From the IMG/VR virus record IMGVR_UViG_3300042553_000326, positions 1-64,000 of that record: 64,000 nt of DNA; one strand, 5' to 3'. The stretch comes from a virus. The position numbers were made by a program, and so were the translations under genes. Below, one piece after another: positions 1,747 to 53,954 of the stretch. Each line of letters opens with the position of its first letter. The stretch's first letter is position 1. The notes beneath the pieces were generated by a model. It did not search any database. It was given only the letters and a program-made list of their open reading frames with translations, and was not told where the DNA came from.

Positions 1747-1773
1747 TTCATATAAGATACCCAAAAACCCGCA
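1747..1773 (-). promoter_or_regulatory. Putative phage-RNAP promoter, copy 1 (TGCGG-N7-GGTATCTTATATGAA)
   Basis: 15-bp core identical at 4 intergenic sites, each just upstream of a gene start. Confidence 0.8.
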
Positions 1774-2272: not shown

Positions 2273-2299
2273 TTCATATAAGATACCTGCTTTTGCGCA
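2273..2299 (-). promoter_or_regulatory. Putative phage-RNAP promoter, copy 2 (TGCGC-N7-GGTATCTTATATGAA)
   Basis: Same core as copies 1, 3 and 4. Confidence 0.8.
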
Positions 2300-4051: not shown

Positions 4052-4078
4052 TTCATATAAGATACCATATTTGCCGCA
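4052..4078 (-). promoter_or_regulatory. Putative phage-RNAP promoter, copy 3 (TGCGG-N7-GGTATCTTATATGAAG)
   Basis: Conserved motif just downstream of the lysis-operon terminator and upstream of the SleB gene. Confidence 0.8.
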
Positions 4079-16860: not shown

Positions 16861-16916
16861 ACATCTGTAGCGATTAATACAGGGGAGCGGTAAAGTTCAA
16901 TAATTTAACAGTTTCG
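16861..16916. promoter_or_regulatory. Conserved intergenic element, copy A (late promoter or origin candidate)
   Basis: TCTGTAGCGATTAATACAGGGGAGCGGTAA...AATTTAACAGTTTCG repeated at 45671-45725. Confidence 0.6.
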
Positions 16917-26400: not shown

Positions 26401-29400
26401 CGGGTACAAGATCTCTATACTTAGTGCCCAGCATCAGTGCACCAGCAGCATGCCTTAGTGTCTGTGACATCGGACCTTTATCAGCCATCAGTCTTACCAT
26501 CTCATCAGACATAGCGATGCTCATTATACTGAATGGGTTCTTAGATCCATTGAATGTAGCATCATCTGCGAAATCCCAGGCATCATCCAGAAACTTAGAT
26601 TCACCGGCTGTCTCTTGTGTCAGATTCGATATATAAGCACGCATTGCTAGTGCCATGAATGACTTGCCATCACTGCTTATAGGGAATGGAGCGTTTGCGA
26701 TAGTATGCATATACGCAAGGTATTCTTCATCTATTCTGGCACCACCTATTCTGGAGGATGCGTCAGCGATATAGTTACTCATGCCCAACGCTTTACGATT
26801 ACTCAGTAGTTCATGATGCCCAAATTCGTGGCGACCAATAATATACTTCAATTCATTTTCTAATTGACTACCCTTATTTCCGAACTTAGGATAGGCAATC
26901 ATCTTGTCGCCGAAGCTGTAGCCTCCTTCGAAAGCATCTCCTGATAGTAGTCTCTTCAGGCCAGCGCCTTTGACATCAGAATTTAGTCCACCGTAAAGAC
27001 TATCAAAGTCTATAAAACCGCCTGTCTGAAAGCCTCTAAGCATTCTGTCGCGAGCATCCAGTGTACCAAAGATATGTAACTTTTCGAAGTAATTAAATAA
27101 ATCAGCGTTAGCGGCGTTATCTACAGCAAGATTTTTCCTAACGTGATTACTAGAACTAGCTATTAATCTACCATCAGAATCTCTGACACTACCATTGCCG
27201 TTAGTACGACCAGATAGGATTGTATCGGCTATACTGCTCTTTCTGCTCTCTCGCATCTTTAGCAACGTATGGAATAGATAAGTATTAGCTTTGAACGTAT
27301 GTAAGGAATCTAAAGTGTTTCGACCGTCGTCAATATAACTAAGAGCACTACTAAAACTATCCAACTCGTGTATATCACCAAATGCCCCAAGTGACTTTCT
27401 TATCAGATTAGATACACCTAATTTCCCAGCAATATCTTGCGCAAATGGTAAATCAAAATCTCTTCTATAACGGCGTTGTGGAGGACCAAGTGGATTTACT
27501 CCAATCAGACTCATAGCTTCCTCTACAAGAAGCTGTGCACCATATGGATCAGCATCAGAAACCGATGCCTTACTCCAAAGATTCCTTATACTAGGTATCA
27601 TAGATGGTAGTATCAAATCTCCGTACTTCTTGATGGAGGCTTGAACTAACGGTTCTACAAACTCAGGCTTAACACCTCTCTCTAGGACAGAACCTACCTT
27701 ACCCTCTAATAGATTGACACCATAGTCAAGACGATTCTCTGTAAGAGCGTTGGTGAATAATGCCTTTGCATCTTCCGCAGAAATGGCAACTCCGTTCTGT
27801 CTAGCAGCTGAAATGGCCATTGCTAATGCACGAGGGTCGAATGAAGTAGTTTCAGGTGCATATTTCTGCTTACCATTCGGCAGTTTAGCAGCCATTCTAT
27901 CGTTCTGATAGAAGCTGTTATACCCGCCCTTGGCAAACCCAGGTAATCCACCGTTGTTGATAGTTTCCAGCAAACCTCTATGTCTCGCCGTAGCTGCTGC
28001 ATTGACAACGAACTCACCATTAGACAATCTAGCTAAGATACTATCAGAAGTACCTGTTCCAGGGCCACGTATCGGGCCACCGGCAGCGTTCGCTGGAATC
28101 TGATTTACCTTGGCGGATTCAGTCTGTTGTGGCAGGTCTGTACCAGAAGCATAGCGTAATGCTTTGTATATCAGGTATCCAATACCAGCAGCCACAGCAA
28201 GTTTCGCAGCTATAACGGCAGCAGCAATAACAGCTGGAGAGGAGAATACAGCAGCAACAGCACCTAGAGCGATACCTAAGGTTGTTATGAGATTTCTAAC
28301 TATTGGTGACGTTATACCAAATGCTTGTCTAAGTTCTTTGGCAAGTTCTAAAAATAAGCCATTAAGCAGTGGGCCTATATTTTGAAATATCATCCTAAGC
28401 GATACACCCATAGATGACAAGGATGACAACGTTGTAGTCCCAAGCTGTGTAGCTAGAAGCTTAACAGCCACCCAGGTTCCAATCAACCCACCGCCAACAA
28501 AAGAGCCGAGATCACCTACTGTGCTATCTGTGCCAGGAATTTTGGTATCAGTTTTGAGAGTGTCTCTGACGAAACTACGAGGACCATTTGTCAGAGCGTC
28601 TATATGCTCCTTGATCTTCTTACTTACATTCTCCCAGAGTTCGCCCATCTTATTTACAAACGGGTCTAGCGCATTCTCTTTCACGAATGTAAAGGCTGTT
28701 TTTACAGCCCCTACCAGCGTATCCCAATTGGTCAGAGCAAGTACTAATGCCGCGACACCAACTATAAACAAAGTGATAGGCGCTGTCAGAATTGGCAATA
28801 GGAATGCAACAGCTTTACCTACACCGGCTAGAATTGCACTGGAGAATAACGCTGTAAGCTGAATAGCTGCTACGCCTATGAAAGCGCCTATCGCCTGCCC
28901 AGTTAACGCGGATGCGATAATAGTTCCATATTTTGCCCATTCAGATGATTCACCCATACCTTTGACAATTTCGACACCTATTTGGTAGCCAGCGAATGTA
29001 CCCGCCGTGCCACCGATGCCACCACCTAAAGTCATCAGTCCGGCCTTCGCATTCTTAGAAGCTTCTGCCAATGTTTTATTCAAGTCCTTCAGCTGTGTAT
29101 TAACTGCCTGTCTGTTAGCAGTGGCTGCAGCTAGATCAGCTGGATTACTTTGTCTAGCATTAGCTATTCTTAAGTCAGCATTAGCTAATCTGTTTTGTAA
29201 CACTTGTTGCGTAATCTTGTCTGTGCCGATTTGCGCAAGTCTAGTAGGGCCAGTCGCTATCGTCTTCAATGCGCCTAGCGCTATCTCACGCCCTTTCTCA
29301 AATAGCAGTGCTAACTTGGCAATAACAGTAAGTGTACCAATTAACCCAGCACTACCTGTTATTCCTTTCCCAAGGAAACCCTTTACGATCATATCTACGA

Positions 29401-31600
29401 ATTCTCTGAATCCACCGACTAATCGCTTAGAGGCATCTGCAACCAGCTGCTTATCCAGTATCTTTTCCATGTATAACAACAGTACAGTTGTATATACACC
29501 GAAGGTAAACATCGGTAGCTTTTCGCCGAATATAGGTATCAACTTCTTAGACAGAAGATGTAACGCTGTTCCAACCATTGTGGCTAGGGCTGCAAATACA
29601 GGAACTTGAAAGCTAGATGGCAATGCATTGAAAGCATCATGGCCGAACGCTCTCGACTCTCTGCCCTTCTTTGGACCTCTCGCCACCTGCCCATCTGGGT
29701 CAGAATCAACCATCCTGCCTAGCTTTTCATACTTGAACTTAACCTTATCTTGTATACCTAAGACTTGTTTCAGCGTATGAATAAAGGCGGCATCCGACTT
29801 AGCGAACCAGTCTTTGAAATCAGCTATGAACATCGAGACGTACCTGCCTATGCTGGTAGATAATAAGCTATCCATAACAGATGAGAACTTCTGCGAGAAG
29901 TAACTCTTTATGGACTTCATAACATCTACAAGTTCTGCATAGTTGGACTTAACAGCATCCATGAAGGATAAGAAAGGAGTTTCCTTTTGACCCTGTGCGC
30001 CATTCAATCCGACAGTTCTAACGCCACTGTTTACCCCAACCATCGTGAAACCACGACGATCAGACATTTCTGAGTCTGAATAAACTCTGCCAGGTCCGCG
30101 ACCGATTTTCTCTGGGACTTTCTCAACAGCACTTCTGGATTTTAAATCCTTCAGATAAGCTCTAATGGTAGTAAGTGTTTTGGAAAAGCTTGTTGTAATC
30201 TTATCGATACTGGAGGATAGACCTCCAAAAATATCTTTGAATACACCACCTATTAATACTCCCGCTGCGACAAATACAGCAACTACTTTAGCAGCCCACA
30301 TTTTCACAGAAGACAGGTCAGGCAAAAATGTCAACAACTCTTTGAACTTAGTTTTATACTGTTCAAAATCGAAGAGACCATTCATCATACCTTTGATAGC
30401 TTCGAATGCATTCCTGGCAATAGCTGGTAAATCTTGGATAAATTTGATCGTATCCAGCATAAGGTCTATGATCGCAATTTCGAACACAGACGCGTAATGC
30501 TGAATTCTTTCAGCGAACTTACCCATGGCTACGGCCATATTGTTTATTTGTTCAGCTGGGCCGCCGGAGCTAGAAAAGAATAGATTAGATATAGCTCTGA
30601 ATAACAGAAGTCCAGATGTCTGAGCATTTTGGAAAGCCTGTGCAAATGTAACACCAACTTTCTTGAACTTAGAGTCCATTACATCGGCCTGACTCAGTAT
30701 TGCTCTAAACACTTCATCAGCAGTAAGTTTACCCTCCTCACCCATCTTACGCAGGTCGCCGATAGCCTTACCCATTCCTTCGGCTATTGCCCTGGCTAAT
30801 GCAGGTGCATTCTCTAACACTGAGCGAAGTTCTTCACCAGCTAAGATACCAGATGCTAAACCCTGGCCTAACTGCAAGATAGCGCTTCTAGCTTCCTGCA
30901 TTGTGGTTCCAGACACAGCTAATGACTTGCCAATAGTAGAAGTCACTCTAGCAACCTCACGTTGGCTCACACCAAGTGTGTCACTAGCTTGGGCAATCTT
31001 GGTGTACAGTGTTGCAATATCAGCTAATGGTGTGCGAGTAGCCGTTGCAATGTGAGTTACATCTCTGAAGGCATTAGCGAACTTAGTAGTGGAATTTGTA
31101 ACTAAATTAATCTTCGTATCGATATTGGTTAAGATATCTGAAAATATAGCTAGTGAGGCAGCTGCACCGGAGGCGACAGTCACCTTAAGCAAGGTATTAG
31201 TTAATCCACCAGTCGACTTACTCGCCTTCTCAGTAACAGATGAGAATTCTGAAACAGATCTAGAATACGTCTGTAATTGTCCAGAGGCTTTATCAAGACC
31301 GTCAGCAGTAAAGTTAGTAGGTCTTCTAAGTGCATTCTTTACCTTATCTACTTCTCTACCGAGCTTTTGTACATTAGCTGTTGCGGTTCCAGTAGCGACC
31401 TCTGCCTTATTGCCTTTTAAACCTTCTTTGAAACTGGTAGTGGACTGACCCAGCTTATCGATTTTCTTTTGTGCTTCATCAGCATTGACTTTAAGCTTTA
31501 TATCATTTACGTTATCCAATCCACGTAACTTAGCTCTTAATCTGTCAACGGTAGAATTAGCTTTCTTTCCATCAACTAATACTTCTAATTCTATTGACAT
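23438..31600 (-). CDS. Tape measure protein (2720 aa) with embedded HExxH metallopeptidase-like and glucosaminidase/FlgJ-like domains
   Basis: Tape-measure domain (QLGQGLASG.L.GEELRSVLENAP), amphipathic repeats, HEFGHH, LETGYG..NNLGN...GYAEDPAY, three GTGTSDSI..LSNGE repeats. Confidence 0.92.
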   Translation of the reverse strand: MSIELEVLVDGKKANSTVDRLRAKLRGLDNVNDIKLKVNADEAQKKIDKLGQSTTSFKEGLKGNKAEVATGTATANVQKLGREVDKVKNALRRPTNFTADGLDKASGQLQTYSRSVSEFSSVTEKASKSTGGLTNTLLKVTVASGAAASLAIFSDILTNIDTKINLVTNSTTKFANAFRDVTHIATATRTPLADIATLYTKIAQASDTLGVSQREVARVTSTIGKSLAVSGTTMQEARSAILQLGQGLASGILAGEELRSVLENAPALARAIAEGMGKAIGDLRKMGEEGKLTADEVFRAILSQADVMDSKFKKVGVTFAQAFQNAQTSGLLLFRAISNLFFSSSGGPAEQINNMAVAMGKFAERIQHYASVFEIAIIDLMLDTIKFIQDLPAIARNAFEAIKGMMNGLFDFEQYKTKFKELLTFLPDLSSVKMWAAKVVAVFVAAGVLIGGVFKDIFGGLSSSIDKITTSFSKTLTTIRAYLKDLKSRSAVEKVPEKIGRGPGRVYSDSEMSDRRGFTMVGVNSGVRTVGLNGAQGQKETPFLSFMDAVKSNYAELVDVMKSIKSYFSQKFSSVMDSLLSTSIGRYVSMFIADFKDWFAKSDAAFIHTLKQVLGIQDKVKFKYEKLGRMVDSDPDGQVARGPKKGRESRAFGHDAFNALPSSFQVPVFAALATMVGTALHLLSKKLIPIFGEKLPMFTFGVYTTVLLLYMEKILDKQLVADASKRLVGGFREFVDMIVKGFLGKGITGSAGLIGTLTVIAKLALLFEKGREIALGALKTIATGPTRLAQIGTDKITQQVLQNRLANADLRIANARQSNPADLAAATANRQAVNTQLKDLNKTLAEASKNAKAGLMTLGGGIGGTAGTFAGYQIGVEIVKGMGESSEWAKYGTIIASALTGQAIGAFIGVAAIQLTALFSSAILAGVGKAVAFLLPILTAPITLFIVGVAALVLALTNWDTLVGAVKTAFTFVKENALDPFVNKMGELWENVSKKIKEHIDALTNGPRSFVRDTLKTDTKIPGTDSTVGDLGSFVGGGLIGTWVAVKLLATQLGTTTLSSLSSMGVSLRMIFQNIGPLLNGLFLELAKELRQAFGITSPIVRNLITTLGIALGAVAAVFSSPAVIAAAVIAAKLAVAAGIGYLIYKALRYASGTDLPQQTESAKVNQIPANAAGGPIRGPGTGTSDSILARLSNGEFVVNAAATARHRGLLETINNGGLPGFAKGGYNSFYQNDRMAAKLPNGKQKYAPETTSFDPRALAMAISAARQNGVAISAEDAKALFTNALTENRLDYGVNLLEGKVGSVLERGVKPEFVEPLVQASIKKYGDLILPSMIPSIRNLWSKASVSDADPYGAQLLVEEAMSLIGVNPLGPPQRRYRRDFDLPFAQDIAGKLGVSNLIRKSLGAFGDIHELDSFSSALSYIDDGRNTLDSLHTFKANTYLFHTLLKMRESRKSSIADTILSGRTNGNGSVRDSDGRLIASSSNHVRKNLAVDNAANADLFNYFEKLHIFGTLDARDRMLRGFQTGGFIDFDSLYGGLNSDVKGAGLKRLLSGDAFEGGYSFGDKMIAYPKFGNKGSQLENELKYIIGRHEFGHHELLSNRKALGMSNYIADASSRIGGARIDEEYLAYMHTIANAPFPISSDGKSFMALAMRAYISNLTQETAGESKFLDDAWDFADDATFNGSKNPFSIMSIAMSDEMVRLMADKGPMSQTLRHAAGALMLGTKYRDLVPAQYNPDPSIYGKPQHFEDNPRYKAPKFRQTKFKTPFDFFEWMLRGNEGKDPEGYAAGGSIRGAGTGTSDSILARLSNGEFVVNAKSTAKYQGLLEAINSGAGLPGFSEGGKALFERTYRTSAERVGNTLGVSPDVILRHWGLETGYGAKIVGNNLGNMIAVGNQPFVTRSDKDAKGNPIKQNFRVFKDIIEFEEEYSGLIQRRYKESLNAEADMVKFATGLQKGGYAEDPAYVEKFIGRRLGPKEIEGMVPSSGGSLTDRALAAFNKVIDSMGLGGIRDRILNAIRSAFGKTADESSNAIRDAMGNMELDKANGVIQDALESTGFTTSIEKIAALGDAERSELVDTLDKYTKIRDKVVAYRTAEAGYAAETSEARREILGKVRDEAAKALQPFGGIFGATEFLRKGGPRIDDILNANASPKDALVPNETKGGFSKKLDSMNFSEAVIQTFAGRGDSEFREMLNGFTKEVADGLDEWTEQSIEYHLNRFEEARNAIDAEEAKPGGGDKRIISLNMRKQKSAEKTVGPQIAKAVGESLANIKWGVFIKPEARNLGISLASEFTSQLSQSMSEVFKGNKNWFDGPESLIRGMFNNFTNRIIEVSVDSFVKAFMKGTIEGFIARYMANQAQSFTNIGRIFESKQGPGYEGIGGYFKGIKDNFNEFILGGKNSTTDGSEATDLLQKNLKNLGAVLPDSAGSLTESLQSTPIALKEVVDSGNTIRSKLFSAENKVSEQMSAVNLDAQAKVLDAAANTNAGVLNDNNNFFFSSLSSAWRDLGGILKSAWGDLKSILTSAWDIIKGIFTGGSTAPGGGGLLGGIGGLISGAKEWFTGDTAGGTAAGAAVSTPIAPPDMIIEIPEWQWDFGYGMASGGRVSGAGTGTSDSIATMLSNGEYVINANSTKKFLPLLESINNGSFRRFAEGGLVAGALAVTPAMASIDSSKRMDEQKSQQVFNINITGDVSRQTRSEIQKMIPQIATGVNMHNAEKGRR

Positions 31601-34791: not shown

Positions 34792-35991
34792 TTACGAGTG
34801 GAAGACCGGGAGAATACCAAGGCTCAGAGCAGAGCTATACTTACGCTGCCACACGCCTTGCACGTACGCCGGAGTACCAGTAACCAGACCGTCAGTAGCG
34901 GCGGTAAGGGCAACATAAGCGGCATTTTCCACAACTTCCTTGTAGTCAGCATCAGACGCGAAAGCATCTTCGCTACCAGCCCAGGTGTAACCAGCCGGAT
35001 GAGCGATGTAGCCCCAGCGATACCAAATTTCAGTGGTACCACCACCTTTGTAGGCGGAAGGCGAACGTGCCATTTCGACCGGAGTCGGAACAGCCAGAGC
35101 GTTAAAGTTGATCGAGCCAGGCAGCACGATGAAGCTGGTCTTCGTACCAGTGATATCAACACCAGGACCAGTGTTCAGCTTAGTCAGCTCGGCGCTAGAC
35201 ATCGACTGAGTGGCTCTAGTCAAGATAAGACGAAACTTACCCTGGAAAATCGTCTGGAAGTCAACGCCGGCTTCGCTAACCTTATCCTGATCCACCAGAT
35301 TGGCGGAGCGGAAAGAGGCCATAACTTCAGGGCTAGTAACCAGGTAGGCGTACGACGGTTCGTAATCCTTCCAACCCTTACCCATAGCTTGCAGGAAGCC
35401 TTCGGCACGAGCAGCGCCTTGAATGATAGCGGTAGCATCGACAACAGCTTTAGCCGAGCCCAGATCCACGTAGAAGCCATACTTCTTGTCAGTCGGGTCG
35501 TTATCAAACGTCTGACCACCCAGACCGTTAGCGCCTTGAGCCTTACCAGCACCATTAAGGGCTTCGGTAATAGCAACACCCTTAAGCACAGCCAGAAGAG
35601 CGTTATGCTCGTCTTGAGTACGCGTCTCGGAGAAGTCGCGACCAATCTTGGCCAGACCATCTTCCTGCGTAACAACTTGCTTCATGTTGACCTTCTCAGC
35701 GCCATGCGTACGAACGGTCTTAACATACTTCAGGAACTCGCTGTCTTGCGTAGTCTTAGTACCAGCGGTGCTATCGGAGATCGACGCAACGTTGATAGTG
35801 GGATTCAGCGGCTTTCTCCAGCGAAGTTGACCAATATAGGTCTCGGTGTCAACGTTAATCTCAGGGTTCGAGACAGCGATACCGGTACCAACCAGTTTCT
35901 TAGCATTGGTGTAAGCTTCATCAGCATAAGCACCAATTGCCTCTTGCAGAACGGTGTCAGTTGCACCGGTAATAGACTTTGTAGCGGACAT
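34792..35991 (-). CDS. Major capsid protein (399 aa)
   Basis: Follows the scaffold; strong codon bias; GGGTTEIWYRWGYIAHPAGYTW motif near the C-terminus. Confidence 0.88.
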   Translation of the reverse strand: MSATKSITGATDTVLQEAIGAYADEAYTNAKKLVGTGIAVSNPEINVDTETYIGQLRWRKPLNPTINVASISDSTAGTKTTQDSEFLKYVKTVRTHGAEKVNMKQVVTQEDGLAKIGRDFSETRTQDEHNALLAVLKGVAITEALNGAGKAQGANGLGGQTFDNDPTDKKYGFYVDLGSAKAVVDATAIIQGAARAEGFLQAMGKGWKDYEPSYAYLVTSPEVMASFRSANLVDQDKVSEAGVDFQTIFQGKFRLILTRATQSMSSAELTKLNTGPGVDITGTKTSFIVLPGSINFNALAVPTPVEMARSPSAYKGGGTTEIWYRWGYIAHPAGYTWAGSEDAFASDADYKEVVENAAYVALTAATDGLVTGTPAYVQGVWQRKYSSALSLGILPVFHS

Positions 35992-36006
35992 ATTGTTTCC
36001 TTGTTA

Positions 36007-36708
36007 TTATCGAGAGAATTTACCTGCAGCAGCCATCGCAATGACTTCTGCCTGTGATTTAGCAAATAAAGAAGTACTCTTCGACTGCTCACCTTGGCCA
36101 CCTTTAGGTTCGCCTTGGCCACCAGCTCCAGAGTTAGTTCTCGGTTTAAACAAGAAGGCTTGATCTTCGTCAGCCGCAAAGGACTTGACAAAATCGTGCA
36201 ATGATACACCAGACTTATGAATCCACTCGCCTTTATCATTACGTACGAGCTGATCGATTACTTCCTTAAAAGCAATCTGTGAGGCTCGTTCGTTTCTGAA
36301 TTCTAGAATACTAAGTGCGGTTTTAACTTCCACGTCGCGGGTAAGTTCAACAACACGCTTCTCAGCAGCTTCTCTGGCAATCTTCTCGTCCTTCAGACGT
36401 TGCTCATAAGCTTCCTTATGTTTACCTTCGTCCTCCAAACGCTTAAGTTCAGCCTCACGCTCAGCAGTTTCCTTAGCCTTTAATTTAGCTTCTGCTTCAT
36501 CACGTGCTTTGTAAGCCTTGTCTAGATTTTCTTTGATCTTCGCTAGTTCAGCATCAGATTTCTCTTTAGCCAGACGCTCAATCTTTTCCTCAGCGGTTTC
36601 GTTCTTAAGTCTTTCCTTTTCTTCCTCTTTCTTAATTGCAAGCTCTTCCGCAGCAATCTCTTCAGGAGTCTTAGGGGTACCGTCTTCTTTGTTTGGATTT
36701 ACAGCCAT
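36007..36708 (-). CDS. Capsid scaffolding protein
   Basis: E/K-rich coiled coil, FLFK...SGAG C-terminal pattern; directly upstream of the capsid gene. Confidence 0.8.
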   Translation of the reverse strand: MAVNPNKEDGTPKTPEEIAAEELAIKKEEEKERLKNETAEEKIERLAKEKSDAELAKIKENLDKAYKARDEAEAKLKAKETAEREAELKRLEDEGKHKEAYEQRLKDEKIAREAAEKRVVELTRDVEVKTALSILEFRNERASQIAFKEVIDQLVRNDKGEWIHKSGVSLHDFVKSFAADEDQAFLFKPRTNSGAGGQGEPKGGQGEQSKSTSLFAKSQAEVIAMAAAGKFSR

Positions 36709-36784
36709 TTTGTTTCATCTCCTGGGCACGGCCCAAAAACTTCTCAAGAGAGCACACACGGTGCACTCCCTGAGTAGATTAAAA

Positions 36785-39700
36785 TTATCCGATCCCGTAC
36801 CAGTACAAATTCTTATCGAACTTATGCTCAATAGGTTTCAGAATGTCTTCTCTTGTGAGGATATCCTCGATTTGCAATACTTTACCACCAACAACAGAAC
36901 GACCAGGCACTGGAATAAGTCCTGTGTCGATAGCCTCATTGAGATATTGGTCATACAGATCCTTAGGCAAACCTCTTGCACGCATCTCATTCAGTGTGTG
37001 CAGGATAACGTTAGACTCTAAAGATTCAGCATATATCTCTCTAAGTGCATCCCTTGCCTTCAGCATGTCAGCAGCGTTCGACAAGAACGCATCATGAACA
37101 GTTGAAGTATCTATGTTATTCCTTCTTCCCCATAGATGATATTTCTTTACTAATACAGCATCGTTACTGTGGTTAGTGTTAACCCCGAAAGCTGTCTTAG
37201 CTTTGTTTAAATCAGCGATATCCTGCATAGTATCAGACTTATTTCTAATCTCTTGCCACCATGTAGGATCGGTCTTCTGTTTAACCTGAACGATATTCGT
37301 TATCCACTCACCATCCTTACTTTTGTACAATAGTTTTTCCTCGAAAGACTGTGTGAACTTTTGTTCAACAACCTTTCCATCGAAATTAACTACAGGTACA
37401 TTAGTCCAGTTCTTAGGTAATTTATTTGGATGCAAAACATCGAATCCACCAAACAGATTCTCTTCTATATCGCCTAACTTAAACTTTACCTTTCCAAGGT
37501 TCTTACCTGTTACACGATCTATAGGATCTTTAACTCCGAATACAATATCAGAGAATGTACTATCAGGTTTGAACCAAGGTATTCTTTTTAGAAGTTTCTC
37601 GCTAAGAGATTCAGATGCTTTAGTACCTAGTATTTCGGCTGCTAGTGGTGACAACTTATCACCAGAGCTGTAATTACCAAATACCATCTGTCTCGCGATA
37701 ACTGCAAAGTCTAATGAGGATTGCGATGGCTTAGCACTGGTTAGGAAATCAGCTGCTAGTCTACCAAAGAACTTAGTGAAGCCTTTTAGAATAGGGACTT
37801 CTTCAGATAAGTTTTCACTCATTATATTTGCTATTAATTTAAAGTCATCAGGAGTGACGACCTTATTGTAATTTCTAGACATCTTCTCTACGAGATCATA
37901 CGTCTTAGGTTCAAGGAACCAAAGTTCCTCAAGAATGTCATCCCCAGGATCGATACCTTTATTGAAGATGTCCTTCACGTCTTGTCGTAAACTCTTAAGT
38001 TCAGCAGCTGTATCAGGATCAAACCTTTCGAATCTAGCTGCACGAGCACTTATCTGCTCTAATACAGTGTCTCTATCCGAAGCCTTAACCACTAGGGTCG
38101 AGTCTTGTTTATCTAATGCTTTAGCCAACTTAGTTTCTACGTTGATAATACCAGTACGTTCACCTGCTCCGTAGAAGGTCACCATGTTTTGAGCTTTAGC
38201 AGCCTTACGTAGATCTTTTTCCGTTAAGCCTAACTTTTGATTAAGCTTAATGAATCTTGGGTCATCGAAGGTTCTTGCTGCAATCTCATCGTACAAACGT
38301 TTCTTCTGATTGGTTGGTACTACATTAGATAACTCAGCCAACTGCTTATTTTTAGTTGTGAGTGCAATGATCTGAGCGCCAGACGACGATGCATCCTGCT
38401 CAAGAGCTATTGCTATCTTGTAATCACTTAGCTTAGCTAAAGACAGCTTATCATATTTCCCATCAAGGAAATTATGTATTTTAGCTGCTTCAAGTGACAG
38501 TCTAAGAGCCTTACCGAGGTCTTCACCATCTATCTCTTGGACAAACTTAGAATCCAGCACAGCTCTAATGTCACCTGGCTTACCACGTAGAATGTGATTA
38601 CCAATCTTAACCATCTCAGGGCGTAATTCTGATGCTATCAGCTGTCTACCTGTGACGGATAATGAGTTATGTCTACCTTCGAACTTATCAGAAAGTCCAC
38701 CTAGAAATCCACCTATCTGATCATTTAGGTTCCTCCATCCAGCTTCACTGAATGGCTTTGCTTCCTTACTATTTAAGAAAGGTCTAAATGATTCACCAGA
38801 TTGAGGCCCAATAAAGCCTCTTTCGTAGATACGTGCACGGTGATCTAGGAATGGTATATTACTGAACGAAGCATTCTTCTTTCTGAGCCAATCCATTACT
38901 TTGAATCGCTCATAGGCATCGCCACGCTCTACCATGTATTCGCGGTAGGTATTCAACTCATTGTAATGTTTAGCGCGACCTTTATCGTCTTCAAACAACA
39001 TCAGCTTATTGATGAAATCATAGAACTCATTATCGATACGATATTCAGTCCTACCTGCCCAATTAAGAGCTTGTGTCATCGACTTATCAATTAATGCCTC
39101 TGGAAAGTCGGCAAAGGAGTCTGTAGACGTTATAGGTATGCGGGTATCGTAATAACCTAGAACACCTTCGTCTATGAAATACGTTTTGTAACCCTCTCTA
39201 ATAATTAAACGGTTTCGCGCATCGATTGGTGTGACACGGATACCTACATCTACTTTTCTAGTTAACTTAGAGTAGTCTTGGATGCGTTTATCGACAATAC
39301 GAAGATGCACAGAGAATGTATCATAAGCAGGACCAAAGTATTTATTACTATTCTTACTCTTCATCCGCCTCTTCTGAACACCAAAGGTTTCTAACTCGTA
39401 GAATCCCTTTCCTTTTGCATCGTCTAACAGTTTAACACCAAGCTTCCACCACTCTTGTCTACTGCCTCTGTAGTTAGCTAGATTATAGAGATCACGTCCG
39501 ATTGCTACAGCGAGCTGATCCCTATCAGGACCATCTGCCAGAGCTAATCTGTTTGCAAACTTAAGATAGAATTGCTTTTTCTGAGGTTCTTCTAGGCGAA
39601 CTAATAGTTTTAAAGGAATTTTCCTATCCAACACGTTACGCAATTCTCTAGCGATCTTCGGTAAGGTTTTATCTTCCCATTTATTCTTTCGTTTTATATT

Positions 39701-41419
39701 AGCTAGGAACTCATCATGAAGCTCGTCTAGTTGGCTAGGTCCAAGAACTGGATCTAGAAAGTTATCTTGCTTCAACCGCTGAAGTAACCCTGTATTGCGC
39801 CTCAGCTGTGTCTCCATGAAGTCCGACACGTTCATCACATCAAACTTCATCTGTCCATTGAGGACTGCCTTAAGATTCTGCCAAGGCTCTTTATTGTTTC
39901 TAAACCTGGTAAATGTAATTCTAAGATTCTCTGTGACAACAGCTCTCTCATTAGAACTCATTTCATCTTCAAGCTTATCTACAAACTTTATGATGAAGTC
40001 TTTATCAGCTTGCTTAAGGTCTGCACTCTCATTAACTAACCTATAACTGTTACTCAATACTGAAGGATTGGGCTGAAATACACGGCTATCCTCGTATCGT
40101 CCCGTTAAGGGGTTGAATAATAACTGATCTTCATTAGGTGGTGTAGATAGAATTCTAGTCTTACTAGCTTTCTTAGTGCCTAGCAGATTACCTCTATAGT
40201 TCGTAAGTGATAACGTACCTTCTAAGTCCCTAGACTGCAGCAGGTAATACTCTTTAAGTGCCTTCTGCAATTCAGTAGATGCAAGTATCTCATCAGGCCT
40301 TGATGCACCTAACTTAAGTACATCTAATCTTTCCTTTGCAGCAGCAAACTTCATCGTATCACCAGGTAAGCCTATACCTGAGGTAGTCATTCTGCGAAGC
40401 TCAGCAATACCTACTTCTTTACCAGAAGGATTAGTGAATTTATCCACAGTAAGCTGTCCACTTCTAAACATATTCAGTCTAGTGGTATCACCAAGGTGTC
40501 TAAGCTGGACTTCAGTAGGTTGACGTTGTAACCACTCACTATAGGACTCTTTTAGTGGTGATTGTCCGTCGTAGTAAGCGATTTGCTTAGCTGTGAGACC
40601 CTCTAGATTACGTTTTCGAATTTGGGCAATATTCTCGAGTGAACCCAAGTCGCTATAGCTTTTGACAATAGGTACAGTGGTACTCCTGCAATGAAAATGA
40701 GCAGGAGGCAAATGAGATACATCACTAATAGGATACACAGTGCCATCGCGATGACGGCAAATAGGGGTAGTTCTAGAATCGAGAACAGCAACGTACTGCC
40801 AACCTCTAAGGACTTTCTCATTAGCTTTATAGACCTCATGATCTGTTTGTGAACGAACCGAGGTCATAGCAGTTCTTACTAAGCCTAATGACTGATTCAT
40901 TGAGATATCAAGGACGTTACCTTTACGTATGGACAACGCAATAGCCTTTTCATCTAGCCCTTGTGCAATACCATTACGTATTACAGCTTCTAATCGTTTA
41001 CGCTCGGAGAGGCTTACTGTATTCCAGCCTTCGAGCAGTGTAACATCATTGTAGATAGGACGCTTTAACACAATGTCTTCAGCTATACGATATTGTGGCT
41101 TAGATGTGCGCCATATCTTACCAACAGCATTATCCAACTGTTGATAAGTGTAGGATATTTGGCTGGATACTAAGTCAAGTAAAGATCTAGAGCTTACATT
41201 ATATGCTTGCCCATAGGTCTTTCTTAATAGCACATCTATCTCTTCCATCATCTTAGGTGACATAGACGCCTTATTACGCAAGATGATATCATCTATCTTC
41301 GTCTTATGGCCATTGACAATGGTGTATATCTTACCAGATACACGCTCCTCGTACAACCTCATCATTGCAGCTCTGTCTACAATATTATCGTATAGAGCTG
41401 TATTCACATTTTGTTTCAT
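36785..41419 (-). CDS. MuF (SPP1 gp7-like) minor head protein fused to a T7-family single-subunit DNA-directed RNA polymerase (1544 aa)
   Basis: N-term: YVAVLDSRTTPICRHRDG...PPAHFHCRST (MuF). C-term: DHRARIY, EQDASSSGAQ (motif A Asp), RKAAKAQNMVTFYG (motif B Lys/Tyr), NHSNDA, VHDAF (motif C Asp). Confidence 0.92.
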   Translation of the reverse strand: MKQNVNTALYDNIVDRAAMMRLYEERVSGKIYTIVNGHKTKIDDIILRNKASMSPKMMEEIDVLLRKTYGQAYNVSSRSLLDLVSSQISYTYQQLDNAVGKIWRTSKPQYRIAEDIVLKRPIYNDVTLLEGWNTVSLSERKRLEAVIRNGIAQGLDEKAIALSIRKGNVLDISMNQSLGLVRTAMTSVRSQTDHEVYKANEKVLRGWQYVAVLDSRTTPICRHRDGTVYPISDVSHLPPAHFHCRSTTVPIVKSYSDLGSLENIAQIRKRNLEGLTAKQIAYYDGQSPLKESYSEWLQRQPTEVQLRHLGDTTRLNMFRSGQLTVDKFTNPSGKEVGIAELRRMTTSGIGLPGDTMKFAAAKERLDVLKLGASRPDEILASTELQKALKEYYLLQSRDLEGTLSLTNYRGNLLGTKKASKTRILSTPPNEDQLLFNPLTGRYEDSRVFQPNPSVLSNSYRLVNESADLKQADKDFIIKFVDKLEDEMSSNERAVVTENLRITFTRFRNNKEPWQNLKAVLNGQMKFDVMNVSDFMETQLRRNTGLLQRLKQDNFLDPVLGPSQLDELHDEFLANIKRKNKWEDKTLPKIARELRNVLDRKIPLKLLVRLEEPQKKQFYLKFANRLALADGPDRDQLAVAIGRDLYNLANYRGSRQEWWKLGVKLLDDAKGKGFYELETFGVQKRRMKSKNSNKYFGPAYDTFSVHLRIVDKRIQDYSKLTRKVDVGIRVTPIDARNRLIIREGYKTYFIDEGVLGYYDTRIPITSTDSFADFPEALIDKSMTQALNWAGRTEYRIDNEFYDFINKLMLFEDDKGRAKHYNELNTYREYMVERGDAYERFKVMDWLRKKNASFSNIPFLDHRARIYERGFIGPQSGESFRPFLNSKEAKPFSEAGWRNLNDQIGGFLGGLSDKFEGRHNSLSVTGRQLIASELRPEMVKIGNHILRGKPGDIRAVLDSKFVQEIDGEDLGKALRLSLEAAKIHNFLDGKYDKLSLAKLSDYKIAIALEQDASSSGAQIIALTTKNKQLAELSNVVPTNQKKRLYDEIAARTFDDPRFIKLNQKLGLTEKDLRKAAKAQNMVTFYGAGERTGIINVETKLAKALDKQDSTLVVKASDRDTVLEQISARAARFERFDPDTAAELKSLRQDVKDIFNKGIDPGDDILEELWFLEPKTYDLVEKMSRNYNKVVTPDDFKLIANIMSENLSEEVPILKGFTKFFGRLAADFLTSAKPSQSSLDFAVIARQMVFGNYSSGDKLSPLAAEILGTKASESLSEKLLKRIPWFKPDSTFSDIVFGVKDPIDRVTGKNLGKVKFKLGDIEENLFGGFDVLHPNKLPKNWTNVPVVNFDGKVVEQKFTQSFEEKLLYKSKDGEWITNIVQVKQKTDPTWWQEIRNKSDTMQDIADLNKAKTAFGVNTNHSNDAVLVKKYHLWGRRNNIDTSTVHDAFLSNAADMLKARDALREIYAESLESNVILHTLNEMRARGLPKDLYDQYLNEAIDTGLIPVPGRSVVGGKVLQIEDILTREDILKPIEHKFDKNLYWYGIG

Positions 41420-41440
41420 TTAGGCTCCTTGATAAATATT

Positions 41441-41467
41441 AAAAAGAGCACTATTGCTAGCGCCCTT
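41441..41467 (-). terminator. Intrinsic terminator between portal and MuF-RNAP
   Basis: AAGGGCGCTA-GCAA-TAGTGCTCTT followed by TT; GNRA loop. Confidence 0.6.
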
Positions 41468-41481
41468 GAAGTATTCACCAG

Positions 41482-43068
41482 TTATTCCTTATCTTTGAAC
41501 GGCTGTTCGTCATTATCAAAGTTTGCTCTATTAGCCTCAGCATCATGTTTCTTTTTCAGAGACACGATGAATTCATCTGCATTAATCTCATCTTGTGCTG
41601 TCTCATCATCATAATCAGGTGGCACAATATCATTCTGCTTAAGAATAGCAAGCCAAGTAGAACGCGGAATAAGACCTTCCTTGTACCATTCAGTAACGAG
41701 GCGTAACCATGCGTCACCAAGCGGTGCAGGATTGAAGTCAGCTGATAGATTGAACTCTACATCTGAAGACTTGAAGTCAGTATTGTAACGCCAATTAAGC
41801 ATGAATGCTATAATGTCAGCTAGTGTATTGCTAACCTTAGTATTCATCGTGCCTAATTGAGCTGTCTGTGAGGCATTCCTAATATCAAGTGCAATACCAG
41901 ACTGACCCACCTCAGGCGTAAGCATTCTAACACCTAACCTAGCCATCTCATCGATAGCACTAGCGATAGTAGCTTCCATATCCTTAAGAGCTTCTGTAGG
42001 TGTCTTCAGGACGTCCGCAGTATCGCCTCTATTGAGTTTAATCCAAGTACCTAACCCGGAATCAACGATCTTGTCAAAATCCTCGTCAGACATGTCTGTG
42101 GAAATCACAGGTGTATATGTAGCTGCCCCATAGATCAGATGATTACGTCTACTCATCTTGTTATAAAGATTAATCTCTTTATCAACGAGCGGAGTAATAG
42201 ACGGTTCGATAGGGTCAATACAACCATTAAGAGGCCATGCAGGGATAAAATCCAATGGCTTATTGTTCATTAAGATACCTGTGATGGTATCTTTAAGCTT
42301 CATTGAGATATTCTTACCGTTAGAGGCGGATACAGATCCACCTGTAGCCTTAGCCTGTGTATCAACCTCAGCCTGAAACACCCTTATCTGATACTTACCG
42401 TCTAGAAGCTCATGCACCCATACTGTTTCAATGTATTCTGGGTGAAATTCATTCTTAATGAAGCTTTCTGAATGACCCTTCACAATGACACGAGTTAGCT
42501 GTGACCTACCATTTACAACTTCAGTCTTCCAGTTGATAATACTCTCAGCTGGCCAAATGATAGGAAATGGAGCAAAGCGCTCTATAAGTTCAGCGTTAGT
42601 CATACCATGATTCTTTGGCACAACAGGGTAATCTACATAGATCCATGTACGTGACGTTTGTACTTCTTCCCACAGAGCGCCATCTAAGAATGCTGCTAAA
42701 GGTTGACCATCCGAAGTAAATGCATCTAGTATCCATTGCTGTGCCTCTTCAGGAGCCTTCTCAGGAAGCTTTAGATGAGGCTGTTTACGAAGCAATCCAC
42801 CTACAATGAACTTAGCAAATGTACTCACAATACCAGGCAATTCAGCCTCGGACTTGTAGAATTCATATTGCTGTGGTGTCATGTTAGGGGAGAAAGGGAT
42901 AAGCAGATTAGTGTAGTTGACAGTGTCAATCAGAGAGTCATAATCTTTAACATAGCGCTCACCGCTACAGACAGCTCTACTACGTTTCCATAATTCAGCA
43001 ATGCTATCATATAAGCTACATGGCTCACCTACACCACGTAGCGGTTCAGAAGCGCTAACGTTAGCCAT
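41482..43068 (-). CDS. Portal protein (DUF4055-like, 528 aa)
   Basis: Follows terminase; W.YVDYP, P......AESIINW, SGIAL.IR, L..DF motifs. Confidence 0.88.
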   Translation of the reverse strand: MANVSASEPLRGVGEPCSLYDSIAELWKRSRAVCSGERYVKDYDSLIDTVNYTNLLIPFSPNMTPQQYEFYKSEAELPGIVSTFAKFIVGGLLRKQPHLKLPEKAPEEAQQWILDAFTSDGQPLAAFLDGALWEEVQTSRTWIYVDYPVVPKNHGMTNAELIERFAPFPIIWPAESIINWKTEVVNGRSQLTRVIVKGHSESFIKNEFHPEYIETVWVHELLDGKYQIRVFQAEVDTQAKATGGSVSASNGKNISMKLKDTITGILMNNKPLDFIPAWPLNGCIDPIEPSITPLVDKEINLYNKMSRRNHLIYGAATYTPVISTDMSDEDFDKIVDSGLGTWIKLNRGDTADVLKTPTEALKDMEATIASAIDEMARLGVRMLTPEVGQSGIALDIRNASQTAQLGTMNTKVSNTLADIIAFMLNWRYNTDFKSSDVEFNLSADFNPAPLGDAWLRLVTEWYKEGLIPRSTWLAILKQNDIVPPDYDDETAQDEINADEFIVSLKKKHDAEANRANFDNDEQPFKDKE

Positions 43069-45239: not shown

Positions 45240-45800
45240 ATCCCGTAAATAAACTTCGAAAACTAATGCGGTATCAAGTACTTACACCGAAACCGATAAG
45301 AAAATCGCTCGCGCTTTCTATATAGCGCCTTCATTAAGATAACACTTTAAGCATTCGTATTTGCTAATGCTGTGTTCAATGTAGTACTCTGCAATTTAAA
45401 CCTACCTATTTACCTTCTCATTGATTTCTCATTTTCAATATAGGGTTACTATACAAGGTACTTATACATAACTCCCCTTGAGTTATCTAATGCTGTAGGT
45501 TAAAGCATTAGTTATTCTATATTGTTAAATACATAGGTTATTAATACATATTATTATTAATAAAGAAGTATAATAAAGAAGGGGCTTACATTGGTAGACG
45601 AATGCATTAAGCTACATCTGTATTATACCTACATATACCTTCTTCTTAATAGATACATACATACATACAGACGTCTGTAGCGATTAATACAGGGGGAGCG
45701 GTAATGGGTTAATTTAACAGTTTCGCGATAGAAAATAATTGTGTAAATCTTGAACTTTGGAAAATTAAACCTTTAAGTAATCTTGTGGCATTTCGAATCA
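45240..45800. other. AT-rich non-coding region between accessory and late modules (origin, pac or late-control candidate)
   Basis: No ORF of 60 aa or more on the coding strand; AT-rich with TACATA-type short repeats. Confidence 0.45.
45671..45725. promoter_or_regulatory. Conserved intergenic element, copy B
   Basis: Near-identical to 16861-16916. Confidence 0.6.
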
Positions 45801-45872
45801 AAAAAAAAAAAAAAAAAAAAAAAGTTGGAGAGACCCTTACCCAGTACCCGAAGGCACCAGATAAGGATCTCT
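45800..45872 (-). terminator. Long UUCG-capped hairpin followed by a 24-nt T tract
   Basis: AGAGATCCTTATCTGGTGCC-TTCG-GGTACTGGGTAAGGGTCTCT, then T24 (45800-45823). Confidence 0.8.
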
Positions 45873-48623: not shown

Positions 48624-48672
48624 AAAAAAAAAAAAAAAAAAAATTATTTAACAAATAACGCCCCGGAGGGCG
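48624..48672 (-). terminator. GC hairpin followed by a 20-nt T tract
   Basis: CGCCC-TCCG-GGGCG, then TTATTTGTTAAATAA, then T20 (48624-48643). Confidence 0.65.
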
Positions 48673-49478: not shown

Positions 49479-49555
49479 TGGTCTCTCGAGATGGAATCGA
49501 ACCATCGACCAACCGCTTAGAAGGCGGTTACTCTTATCCGCTGAGCTATCGAGAG
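49479..49555 (-). tRNA. tRNA-Arg (UCU)
   Basis: CTCTCGA acceptor, ACCGC-CTTCTAA-GCGGT anticodon arm, GTTCGATTC T-loop, encoded CCA. Confidence 0.93.
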
Positions 49556-50013
49556 TATACTGTATATTTATCGATAAGATTGTTGTCTACTGCAGACTGC
49601 ATTTCTTCTGACAACCCGTCTAACTGGGCCTTTCTAGAAAATTTACCACTACAACTCCTAGAACAGAATACACCGTATTTCTTAACGGCTGTTTGAAATG
49701 CCTGTCTGTAGCTACGTTCGAATACGCATTTGCACTGTGGGCACTCTAATAAACAAGTCAAGACACCCTGCTCATAACCATGCATTCTCATATGCTCGAT
49801 GCGATCCATAACCTGAAGATTATCTACACTATTATCCCGCTTGTCATGATTTTTATGATGCACAATCTCTTCGGACGTAAGTAATCTGCCTAATTTATTT
49901 TCCATAATGATTCTGTGGTGAAACACATAGCCTAACACAGTAGCATTTGGGTGGTCCGGCACTTTAGCGTAAATATAGTCGCCTTTTGAGACAATACCTT
50001 GTATTATCCACAT
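49546..50013 (-). CDS. HNH homing endonuclease with C-terminal Zn finger
   Basis: YVFHHRIIME..LGR.L...EIVHHKN.DKRDN...NL; CPQC...FCSRSC. Confidence 0.9.
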   Translation of the reverse strand: MWIIQGIVSKGDYIYAKVPDHPNATVLGYVFHHRIIMENKLGRLLTSEEIVHHKNHDKRDNSVDNLQVMDRIEHMRMHGYEQGVLTCLLECPQCKCVFERSYRQAFQTAVKKYGVFCSRSCSGKFSRKAQLDGLSEEMQSAVDNNLIDKYTVYSR

Positions 50014-50045
50014 AACGATCTCTTTCTGTAAATGGTTAGCGTAAG

Positions 50046-50204
50046 TTAATATTCCTGATAATCTTCAGGGTAAGGCTGTGGTGGACCGCTGTAGAATGGA
50101 TTCTTGTACCACACATCTCTGTCGGACAGTATCCAGGCTAGATCAGGACGATCCCTACCAACATTTAATGCGTATTCCCTGTCCGCTTGCTCTTCAAAGG
50201 ACAT
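50046..50204 (-). CDS. Small hypothetical protein (52 aa, ...AWILSDRDVWYKNPFYSGPP...)
   Basis: Translated by hand; fills the gap in the operon. Confidence 0.6.
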   Translation of the reverse strand: MSFEEQADREYALNVGRDRPDLAWILSDRDVWYKNPFYSGPPQPYPEDYQEY

Positions 50205-50211
50205 ATTTAAT

Positions 50212-50583
50212 CTACTTATAGTAGATAAAGACGCCGTTTCTGGATTTTTGAGAGGTACCTACAACACCTGCCCCGAATACGTCCTTACAGGCGTTCTTAA
50301 CCGCAGTGCCGAAGGCTCTAAGTGGAGTATCTGGTGGGGTGAAGAAGAACATTGACTCACCTGGCGCTAATTTAGCCACCTTGATATTCAACTTCTCCTT
50401 TAAGAAATTATACTGTTCAGCTTTAGGAGTGGGTGCTTTCCTATTCTTAGGGGACGCTCTTTTACTAATTAATTTCAGCGGCTCCTCAACTATTTTTATC
50501 TTGCGCTCAATATCTACCGCGAGCTCCTTCTTCTTAAACTGTCTGTCCATGTACCTTATCTGACTCTCAGTCCTTGCATCCAT
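50212..50583 (-). CDS. Hypothetical basic protein, possibly DNA-binding
   Basis: Coupled ORF; C-terminus resembles the C-terminus of 47621-48604. Confidence 0.65.
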   Translation of the reverse strand: MDARTESQIRYMDRQFKKKELAVDIERKIKIVEEPLKLISKRASPKNRKAPTPKAEQYNFLKEKLNIKVAKLAPGESMFFFTPPDTPLRAFGTAVKNACKDVFGAGVVGTSQKSRNGVFIYYK

Positions 50584-50775
50584 TTATTGACCTTGCTCCG
50601 TCTCGATCATAGCATCGTGAATGTACTTATGTTGCGCATTCAATGCTGAACGAATAGAGTCGTTCTCGTTCTCACTAATGAAGATTTCGCCTTTTCGATC
50701 GATCATTGCAATTTCCCAACCAAGCTTACGAATTACTGCAGCTGCTTCTGTTGCGGTTTCAAATTCTTTATCCAT
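50584..50775 (-). CDS. Hypothetical protein (63 aa)
   Basis: GGAG RBS. Confidence 0.6.
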   Translation of the reverse strand: MDKEFETATEAAAVIRKLGWEIAMIDRKGEIFISENENDSIRSALNAQHKYIHDAMIETEQGQ

Positions 50776-50805
50776 TTTTATTTCTCCGTTTGTAATATGT
50801 GGGGG

Positions 50806-50877
50806 TTCCCTATGTCTGGATCAAACAGACGACCTATCGCTTACAAGGCGATTGCTCTGTCACTGAGCTAATAGGGA
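50806..50877 (-). tRNA. tRNA-Thr (UGU), atypical elbow, no encoded CCA
   Basis: TCCCTAT/ATAGGGA acceptor, ATCGC-CTTGTAA-GCGAT anticodon arm, T arm GTCTG-TTTGATC-CAGAC. Confidence 0.85.
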
Positions 50878-50959
50878 ATAGATCGGTTAACCTTAAAGCC
50901 GATACCATGCACCGAAAGGTCTGGCATCCGCGATACGTAGGTGTATCACTCCTAAACGG

Positions 50960-51033
50960 TGGCCCCTGTTGGACTCGAACCAACAACCAAAGGATTATGA
51001 GTCCTCTGCTCTCACCAATTGAGCTAAAGGGCC
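50960..51033 (-). tRNA. tRNA with CAU anticodon, Ile2 (lysidine)-type body, no encoded CCA
   Basis: GGCCCTT/AGGGGCC acceptor and GA-CTCATAA-TC arm resemble bacterial tRNA-Ile2 rather than Met. Confidence 0.85.
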
Positions 51034-51040
51034 GTACTAC

Positions 51041-51259
51041 TTAATCGCGCTGCATGAAGTCGCCAAGAGACATCGACACACCGGCGTAGTTACTGCCACG
51101 ACCCCAGGGAGCATATTTATTACGCTCCAGAGACCTCCAGTCGACACACGAGATGCGAACCTTTCCATGGTACTGCGGAAAGCCCTCTTTGGCATTGGGA
51201 TGCGGGACACAAGCCAGATTGCGCTTCGTCATCTTAACAACCATGTTCGGATTAAACAT
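51041..51259 (-). CDS. Hypothetical protein (72 aa)
   Basis: AGGAG RBS. Confidence 0.6.
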   Translation of the reverse strand: MFNPNMVVKMTKRNLACVPHPNAKEGFPQYHGKVRISCVDWRSLERNKYAPWGRGSNYAGVSMSLGDFMQRD

Positions 51260-51455
51260 TTACAGCTCCTTCTGATTTAACGTAACCTCTGATATAGAAC
51301 TTAAGACGTTCTTCATCTTTCTTAAGCTCCGCTTCTGTAGCTCTGAAATCAGGATTCAGTATTGCAAACCCTTTATCCCACAGCTCAGGTGTCATACACA
51401 TTGTTCTGAATATGAAACCCTTATGCACAACAGTGACGCAACGAATACTCGCCAT
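51252..51455 (-). CDS. Hypothetical protein (67 aa)
   Basis: AGGAG RBS. Confidence 0.6.
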   Translation of the reverse strand: MASIRCVTVVHKGFIFRTMCMTPELWDKGFAILNPDFRATEAELKKDEERLKFYIRGYVKSEGAVNV

Positions 51456-51711: not shown

Positions 51712-51738
51712 GGTAATATCCTCATGCGTTAAACTACG

Positions 51739-51942: not shown

Positions 51943-51955
51943 AATACTCCTTTAG

Positions 51956-53927: not shown

Positions 53928-53954
53928 TTCATATAAGATACCCTTAAATCCGCA
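53928..53954 (-). promoter_or_regulatory. Putative phage-RNAP promoter, copy 4 (TGCGG-N7-GGTATCTTATATGAAG)
   Basis: Same core as copies 1-3, about 50 kb away. Confidence 0.8.

Follow-up and report, generated by a model that had tools for sequence, protein, structure and literature searches.

The DNA analysed here, called the window, comprises positions 1–64,000 of the virus record IMGVR_UViG_3300042553_000326, which totals 75,242 bp and is rated 100% complete; positions marked 'genome' refer to the whole record, whose annotation places nearly all genes on the minus strand. The genome is that of a siphovirus-like phage from lake water, with a tape measure protein of 2,720 amino acids (aa) at 23438–31600 (-). 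In its head-assembly region lies the gene that is the subject of this report, in which a MuF (SPP1 gp7-type) head-morphogenesis domain continues, in the same frame, into a predicted RNA polymerase (RNAP) of the T7 type (Table 1). An initial annotation, made from the sequence, had described this gene as a single uninterrupted open reading frame (ORF) of 1,544 aa, and this was borne out. Logan contigs of two lake-water sequencing runs cover 36700–41500 with zero differences and zero indels, and no stop interrupts the frame in them; contigs of two further runs cover parts of the region, and the frame is continuous in 80 relatives. The first three of these runs may be the source sample, and for this reason we do not count them as independent support. 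No RNA run stood among the sequencing runs listed as carrying this sequence.

Domain architecture and predicted fold of the fusion protein

Profile searches recognised both halves of the protein above the curated Pfam cut-offs. Phage_Mu_F (PF04233) matched aa 143–248 with 54.7 bits (cut-off 29.6; 60.2 bits in a whole-genome profile search), and RNA_pol (PF00940) scored 40.2 bits (cut-off 22) over part of the profile only. Among the PHROGs, the head-morphogenesis family phrog_241 matched aa 1–344 at 2e-61, and the RNA polymerase family phrog_414 matched further along the protein. In a genome-wide search, this PF04233 domain was the single MuF domain of a genome rated 100% complete. The MuF motifs fall where the initial annotation had put them (LDSRTTPICR at aa 213–222 and PPAHFHCRST at aa 238–247), and D214, T217, C221, P238, P239, H241, C244, R245 and S246 are the invariant residues of this domain.

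The polymerase motifs that had been read from the sequence were likewise recovered in their places: DHRARIY at aa 859–865 (nucleotides (nt) 38845–38825), DASSSGAQ at aa 1009–1016 (38395–38372), KAAKAQNMVTFYG at aa 1072–1084 (38206–38168), NHSNDA at aa 1416–1421 and VHDAF at aa 1441–1445 (37099–37085). In HMMER alignments, DxRxRxY of the fusion pairs with DWRGRVY of T7 RNAP, EQDASSSG with FDGSCSG (key residue D537), NGNHSNDA with PNFVHSQDG (H784) and IHDAF with IHDSF (D812), and the spacing from K to Y in motif B is eight residues, as in T7. The distance between motifs B and C is about 333 residues in the fusion versus about 144 in T7. Across a 41-sequence alignment (A1) with rows down to about 20% identity, D1009, K1075, Y1083, G1084, D1420 and D1443 are invariant, and H1417 is conserved in at least 90% of the sequences.

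The predicted structure agrees with the claim that the polymerase half folds as a T7-type enzyme. An AlphaFold (AF2) model of aa 350–1544, made with an alignment of 41 homologues, has a predicted local distance difference test score (pLDDT) of 85.9 and a predicted template modelling score (pTM) of 0.79. T7 RNAP aligns with it at Z 29.5 (root mean square deviation 3.9, 533 residues aligned), model residues 214–1195 pairing with T7 residues 35–883. Because this range of T7 is covered, and model residue 214 or so corresponds to aa 563, aa 563–1544 would make up a whole T7-type polymerase, including its N-terminal domain. Mitochondrial RNAPs follow at Z about 27, the mini virion RNAP (mini-vRNAP) of phage N4 scores lower (Z 19–20), and the Foldseek match of the polymerase model has an E value of about 1e-18. 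The family profile reaches T7 RNAP at 2e-13 (HMMER), and no N4 virion RNAP stands among its matches at E ≤ 1. Searched as a single sequence, the polymerase part matched nothing among the PDB sequences, which indicates a very divergent polymerase branch. Taken together, sequence and modelled structure confirm that the protein is a genuine fusion of MuF with a T7-family RNAP whose catalytic residues are strongly conserved, and, judged by those residues, the polymerase half is apparently active.

A model of aa 1–600 (AlphaFold, pLDDT 85.7) contains one disordered segment only, aa 347–356, which parts MuF from the remainder and could serve as a hinge that permits release of the polymerase or a tethered mode of action. 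Foldseek searches of this model against PDB returned nothing at E ≤ 0.001, and a VIA-wide structural search returned only generic helical bundles (best Z 11.1, a designed repeat), in rows that barely extend into the connector beyond the hinge; as these searches gave no informative match, we leave the folds of MuF and connector unplaced.

Some homologues (P0036, P0107, P0063, P0028 and P0069) carry in-frame inserts of 100–230 aa in the polymerase, at sites that correspond to aa 989 and 1110 of the fusion protein in the window. The inserts of P0036 and P0107, about 230 aa long, are homologous to each other and occupy two different positions; in that of P0028, a DGLHR motif resembles ParB on visual inspection only, without a Pfam match. 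These inserts may be extra cargo domains. We considered inteins in the longer homologues (1,626–1,775 aa) and rejected them, as the segments are in frame and have neither intein ends nor Pfam intein matches.

Table 1. Positions in the window of the fusion gene, its parts, neighbouring genes and promoter-like motifs
Feature	Position	Strand	Basis
Whole fusion gene	36785..41419	-	Single open frame, 1,544 aa; Pfam, PHROGs, contigs, 80 relatives
MuF / SPP1-gp7 head-morphogenesis domain, aa 1–346	40382..41419	-	PF04233, phrog_241, invariant residues
Predicted disordered hinge, aa 347–356	40352..40381	-	Sole segment with pLDDT < 50 in model of aa 1–600
Mostly helical connector, aa 357–562	39734..40351	-	Beyond T7 RNAP alignment; no informative fold match
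Predicted complete T7-family single-subunit RNA polymerase, aa 563–1544	36788..39733	-	Aligned with T7 residues 35–883
D1009, counterpart of T7 D537 (motif A catalytic Asp)	38393..38395	-	Invariant; aligned with T7 DGSCSG
K1075–Y1083, then G1084, counterparts of T7 K631 / Y639 / G640 (motif B)	38171..38197	-	Invariant
H1417 (T7 H784), D1420, D1443 (T7 D812, motif C catalytic Asp)	37091..37171	-	Conservation and alignment
Portal protein, presumed MuF docking partner	41482..43068	-	DUF4055
Terminator-like hairpin and T-run, between portal and fusion gene	41444..41467	-	Not above chance
Scaffold protein gene, directly downstream of fusion	36007..36708	-	phrog_206
Major capsid protein	34792..35991	-	Homology
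Class A motif, copy 1	53928..53954	-	Motif search
Class A motif, copy 2	4052..4078	-	Motif search
Class A motif, copy 3	2273..2299	-	Motif search
Class A motif, copy 4	1747..1773	-	Motif search
Class B motif CTGTTAAATTAACCC with CCGCTCCCCC box, upstream of terS-terL-portal-fusion operon	45705..45720	-	Motif search
Class B variant with the same CCGCTCCCC box, upstream of tail-fibre operon	16896..16911	-	Motif search
Class B variant	54007-53992	-	Motif search

Conservation in the head-assembly slot

The fusion in its head-assembly slot is conserved across a very large phage clade. The polymerase part matches at least 364 clusters at 90% identity; among the clusters listed, nearly all are about 1,540 aa long, all but three have both PF04233 and PF00940, and no name other than 'SPP1 gp7 family head morphogenesis protein' is given to those members that bear one. 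When 1.8 billion representatives were searched, 165 clusters (50% identity) were obtained, with full-length fusions of about 30% identity among them, and 565 IMG/VR contigs encode a relative. The gene order portal, fusion, scaffold, capsid, which the initial annotation had read from the window, is confirmed by gene annotation, and the search for the same synteny in viral databases extended it: MuF and polymerase stand in one frame, in that order of genes, in 80 of the 80 loci fetched.

Whole fusions are present in only four of 50,697 GenBank phage records, namely DSS3_VP1 (two records) and DSS3_PM1, both roseophages of the Naomviridae with deoxyuridine-containing DNA (dU-DNA), and EBPR siphovirus 1. 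GenBank annotates the protein as 'head morphogenesis', 'minor head protein-like' or 'head protein'. In EBPR siphovirus 1 (JF412302) it is split between gp47 'head protein' and gp49 'hypothetical', the gene being interrupted by an HNH endonuclease gene, gp48, and by a group I intron-like sequence (15182–15408 of the fetched locus; 40.5 bits, below the Rfam gathering score). The fusion proteins and their Pfam architecture are thus already public. We found no description of a MuF–RNAP fusion in the open literature searched, which included PMC8323127, PMC12697855, PMC5512222, PMC9503650, PMC5576092, PMC10770324, PMC6316719 and PMC3097231; the paper describing DSS3_VP1 never mentions RNA polymerase.

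Within the head module, the portal shares 42–43% identity with its counterparts in DSS3_VP1 and EBPR siphovirus 1. A prediction of the MuF–portal complex scored 0.00, a value that is evidence neither for nor against binding. No gene for a prohead protease came to light between those for portal and capsid, and the gene that follows the fusion is the scaffold gene, not an immunity gene. No integrase turned up among the annotated genes, an annotation that is not exhaustive, and the phage appears to be lytic. The initial annotation had also pointed to a terminator just upstream of the fusion gene as fitting expression at low stoichiometry. The hairpin does exist, and a role for it in setting stoichiometry is weak, as terminator-like sites in its region are no more numerous than in shuffled sequence (8 found versus 7.0 ± 2.6). 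A more consistent feature in the relatives is a strong phage-promoter-like motif of class B (described below) in the short gap between the stop codon of the fusion and the scaffold gene, ahead of scaffold and capsid, which 48 of 67 relatives have; it is absent from this gap in the present genome. A 419-aa antisense ORF (34798–36057, +) overlaps the capsid gene, and antisense tblastn matches occur in relatives too; in all likelihood it is no gene of its own and arises as a by-product of capsid-gene conservation.

A second RNA polymerase and two classes of promoter-like motif

The record also encodes, outside the window, a canonical T7-like stand-alone RNAP (genome 72023–75006, -) with Pfam matches of 1e-35 and 1e-29 and a T7-like C-terminus. 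A group I intron (RF00028, 86.4 bits; intron region genome 72754–73450, -) interrupts its gene within motif B (ISKR / NVMTIPYGG), and a 158-aa HNH_3/AP2 homing-endonuclease ORF lies 3' of the intron core. Fusion and stand-alone RNAP can hardly be aligned (E about 1e-3). All three complete relatives (G001–G003) have the stand-alone enzyme in intact form, 743–760 aa long, and DSS3_VP1 encodes one as well (gp080).

Two classes of long promoter-like motif accompany the two polymerases. Class A, TGCGS-N7-GGTATCTTATATGAA (also written TGCGG-N7-GGTATCTTATATGA), has four copies in the window against 0 expected from shuffles, all of them intergenic and on the coding strand; G001, G002 and G003 each have two to three copies of the class A core with an upstream TGCGG or GCGG. 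Class B has the clade consensus CCGTTAAATTAACCC, which contains AATTAACCC of the T3 promoter, and is present in seven copies in G002, five in G001 and four to five (variants) in G003, with two near-matches in EBPR siphovirus 1. The CCGCTCCCCC box follows a subset of class B copies. Both classes occur on the coding strand only and are common to genomes of 36–48% GC.

The positions of the two classes differ. One or two class A motifs lie 2–6 kb upstream of the stand-alone RNAP gene in G001–G003, with no class B motif between, and the next class B motif lies after that gene. Class B precedes middle and late genes, with further copies ahead of the terminase operon. Given a second RNAP and two motif classes, a relay of polymerases becomes a more concrete proposal.

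Possible role in early transcription and its alternatives

The only MuF domain of this phage is fused to what is predicted to be a complete RNAP, and the phage therefore probably carries a transcription enzyme in its capsid. This accords with what the initial annotation had proposed, namely that MuF is a loading tag that delivers a late-made polymerase into the next cell. SPP1 gp7 enters the procapsid in few copies by binding the portal (PMC6316719). MuF is fused to many head-packaged effectors (PMC5512222 and PMC9503650), and comparative genomics has established it as a general carrier of such cargo, as set out in those two papers and in PMC5576092. For phage P23-45 there is proof of a virion RNAP joined to a structural protein and of a non-virion RNAP that acts after it: virion gp96 transcribes the pre-early genes, including that of gp64, the second RNAP, and there are two promoter classes (PMC10770324).

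On this basis we propose the following sequence of events. The fusion would be produced late from the head operon, and few copies would be loaded per procapsid through binding of MuF to the portal. At the next infection it would leave the capsid with the DNA or just before it, and would transcribe the first genes, including that of the stand-alone RNAP, from phage-specific promoters, for which class A is the best candidate. From there the stand-alone RNAP would take over at the class B promoters, which are more numerous and stand before the replication, packaging and structural genes. We infer packaging, ejection and activity, as well as the assignment of polymerases to motifs, from gene content and motif positions, and early transcription independent of the host, together with transcription-driven entry of the DNA, may be the outcome. 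To the reading that a packaged fusion is delivered at infection and carries out early transcription we give a probability of roughly 60%. The broader proposal is a self-contained relay, independent of host RNAP, with two polymerases and two promoter classes, whose first enzyme is docked at the portal through MuF and delivered from the capsid; it would apply to a large global clade of roughly 75-kb long-tailed phages from freshwater, wastewater and marine sources, including the dU-DNA Naomviridae, and we consider the chances for and against it to be even.

Several points weigh against these proposals. In 2006 Vinga and colleagues reportedly saw no detectable ejection of SPP1 gp7 together with the DNA in vitro; MuF may accordingly remain behind in the capsid, unless the hinge is cleaved or this lineage behaves differently. 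A protein of 175 kDa must unfold to traverse a long tail. The host RNAP could read class A, and a late-made fusion could equally act in the cell that produces it. The stand-alone RNAP is also the first gene at one end of this contig, and the class A copies at 4078–1747 come to lie upstream of it only once the two ends of the contig are connected, ends between which no overlap was detected. The coding strand has four very long T tracts (T30 at 32–61, T24 at 45800–45823, T20 at 48624–48643 and T30 at genome 75169–75198), three of which follow a GC-rich hairpin at an operon end. The two T30 tracts stand one at each end of the contig, no more than about 60 nt from it, and may have broken the assembly there; the longest T tracts in G001–G003 measure at most 14.

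Alternatively, the polymerase might act late in the producing cell, for example at late or lysis promoters, either because the fusion is not packaged whole or because the polymerase is cut off at the hinge. The late head operon in which the gene sits would suit this, the disordered segment could be a cleavage site, and three class A motifs precede genes at the end of the genome, among them the counterpart of an annotated endolysin gene in DSS3_VP1. A covalently attached MuF would, however, be useless to a free late RNAP, yet the fusion is kept in every locus fetched and in relatives as distant as about 30% identity; the head module shows no protease gene, a stand-alone RNAP is already available for intracellular transcription, and class A ahead of that RNAP in the relatives fits a polymerase that is present before phage gene expression. 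We regard late action as unlikely.

The fusion might instead be packaged mainly for something other than gene expression, such as pulling in the genome by transcription, priming replication or anchoring the DNA end at the portal. Entry of the genome driven by T7 RNAP, and priming, are established for T7; SPP1 gp7 controls DNA exit and anchors DNA; and a conserved active site suits any role in which RNA is synthesised. Such roles are nevertheless compatible with early transcription, and most depend on promoter-directed synthesis in any case; a primase-helicase is already encoded by the phage, and pure anchoring would not hold catalytic residues invariant. A main function of this kind seems decidedly unlikely. 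A reading of the polymerase half as a remnant without activity, structural or DNA-binding in role, would account for its great divergence (no PDB relative by single sequence, a partial Pfam match) and for about 190 extra residues between motifs B and C. It is highly improbable in view of the counterparts of T7 D537, K631, Y639, G640 and D812, which are invariant down to about 20% identity, with that of H784 conserved to at least 90%, and of a whole T7 fold predicted at high confidence.

Phages have arrived at virion RNAPs in different ways: N4-like phages, crAss-like phages, jumbo phages and P23-45 each have a solution of their own. Like gp50 of N4, the fusion is a Pol-A-type single-subunit RNAP encoded among late or virion genes, in a phage with a second, T7-like RNAP, and it resembles the N4 relay in its proposed logic, in which a packaged enzyme would start the programme. 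N4 gp50 (Schitoviridae) is a protein of about 3,500 aa with a central polymerase and a metallopeptidase-like domain, without MuF, from a short-tailed phage; N4-like virion RNAPs, whose central polymerase module almost always comes with the metallopeptidase-like domain, are confined to N4-like phages (Iyer et al. 2017, PMC5512222). Unlike gp50, the fusion has 1,544 aa in which Pfam finds MuF and RNA_pol only and no metallopeptidase domain, and its polymerase is nearer to T7 and mitochondrial RNAPs (Z 27–29.5) than to N4 mini-vRNAP. The distinction from the N4 enzyme that the initial annotation had drawn therefore holds in sequence, in structural score and in domain content. As in P23-45 gp96 (PMC10770324), a polymerase is fused to a structural protein of the virion in a long-tailed phage; the RNAPs of P23-45, unlike this one, are of the two-barrel, cellular type and ride on the tape measure, whereas here a T7-type (Pol A) enzyme is joined to a head protein.

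The N-terminal MuF and the position directly downstream of the portal gene are shared with SPP1 gp7 and Mu gpF, and the C-terminal enzymatic cargo with MuF polymorphic toxins and polyvalent proteins. Here, though, the cargo is a 1,200-aa polymerase and not a toxin, ADP-ribosyltransferase or RNase. No RNAP appears among the MuF cargos in the passages searched in Iyer 2017 (PMC5512222) and Iyer 2022 (PMC9503650), and Jamet 2017 (PMC5576092) never mentions RNA polymerase. MuF polymorphic toxins combine a C-terminal toxin with an immunity gene in a temperate phage (Jamet 2017), a combination that the fusion and its genome lack. The polymerase has the fold and catalytic motifs of the T7, T3 and SP6 RNAPs (Autographiviridae), and the genome has long phage-specific promoter-like motifs as theirs do; those enzymes, however, are free-standing, early and about 880 aa long, whereas the fusion is encoded late and contains large insertions.

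If the proposal is true, virion RNAPs would have evolved independently by a third route, with the fusion as the first of T7 type outside the N4 lineage, and MuF would be able to deliver a 130-kDa machine and not only toxins. Widespread environmental siphoviruses, those of the IMG/VR contigs and the cultured dU-DNA roseophages among them, may then bypass host transcription from the first minute. Cultures of DSS3_VP1 and of its host, Ruegeria pomeroyi DSS-3, make the idea directly testable, and the clade offers new polymerase–promoter pairs with conserved motifs of 15–27 nt.

Further observations concern other genes of this phage. The genes scanned, a scan that was not exhaustive, include no homologue of the dCTP/dCMP deaminase or the YfbR-type HD hydrolase that are dU-DNA genes of DSS3_VP1. 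A 213-aa protein (genome 70045–70686, -) has the N-terminal domain of a dATP/dGTP diphosphohydrolase (PF18909, 4e-25; phrog_801), a match that hints at manipulation of the nucleotide pool or at modified DNA; no partner enzymes for it were recognised. Four tRNA genes (Arg-TCT, Thr-TGT, Met-CAT and Leu-TAA) lie at 49479–52040 (-).

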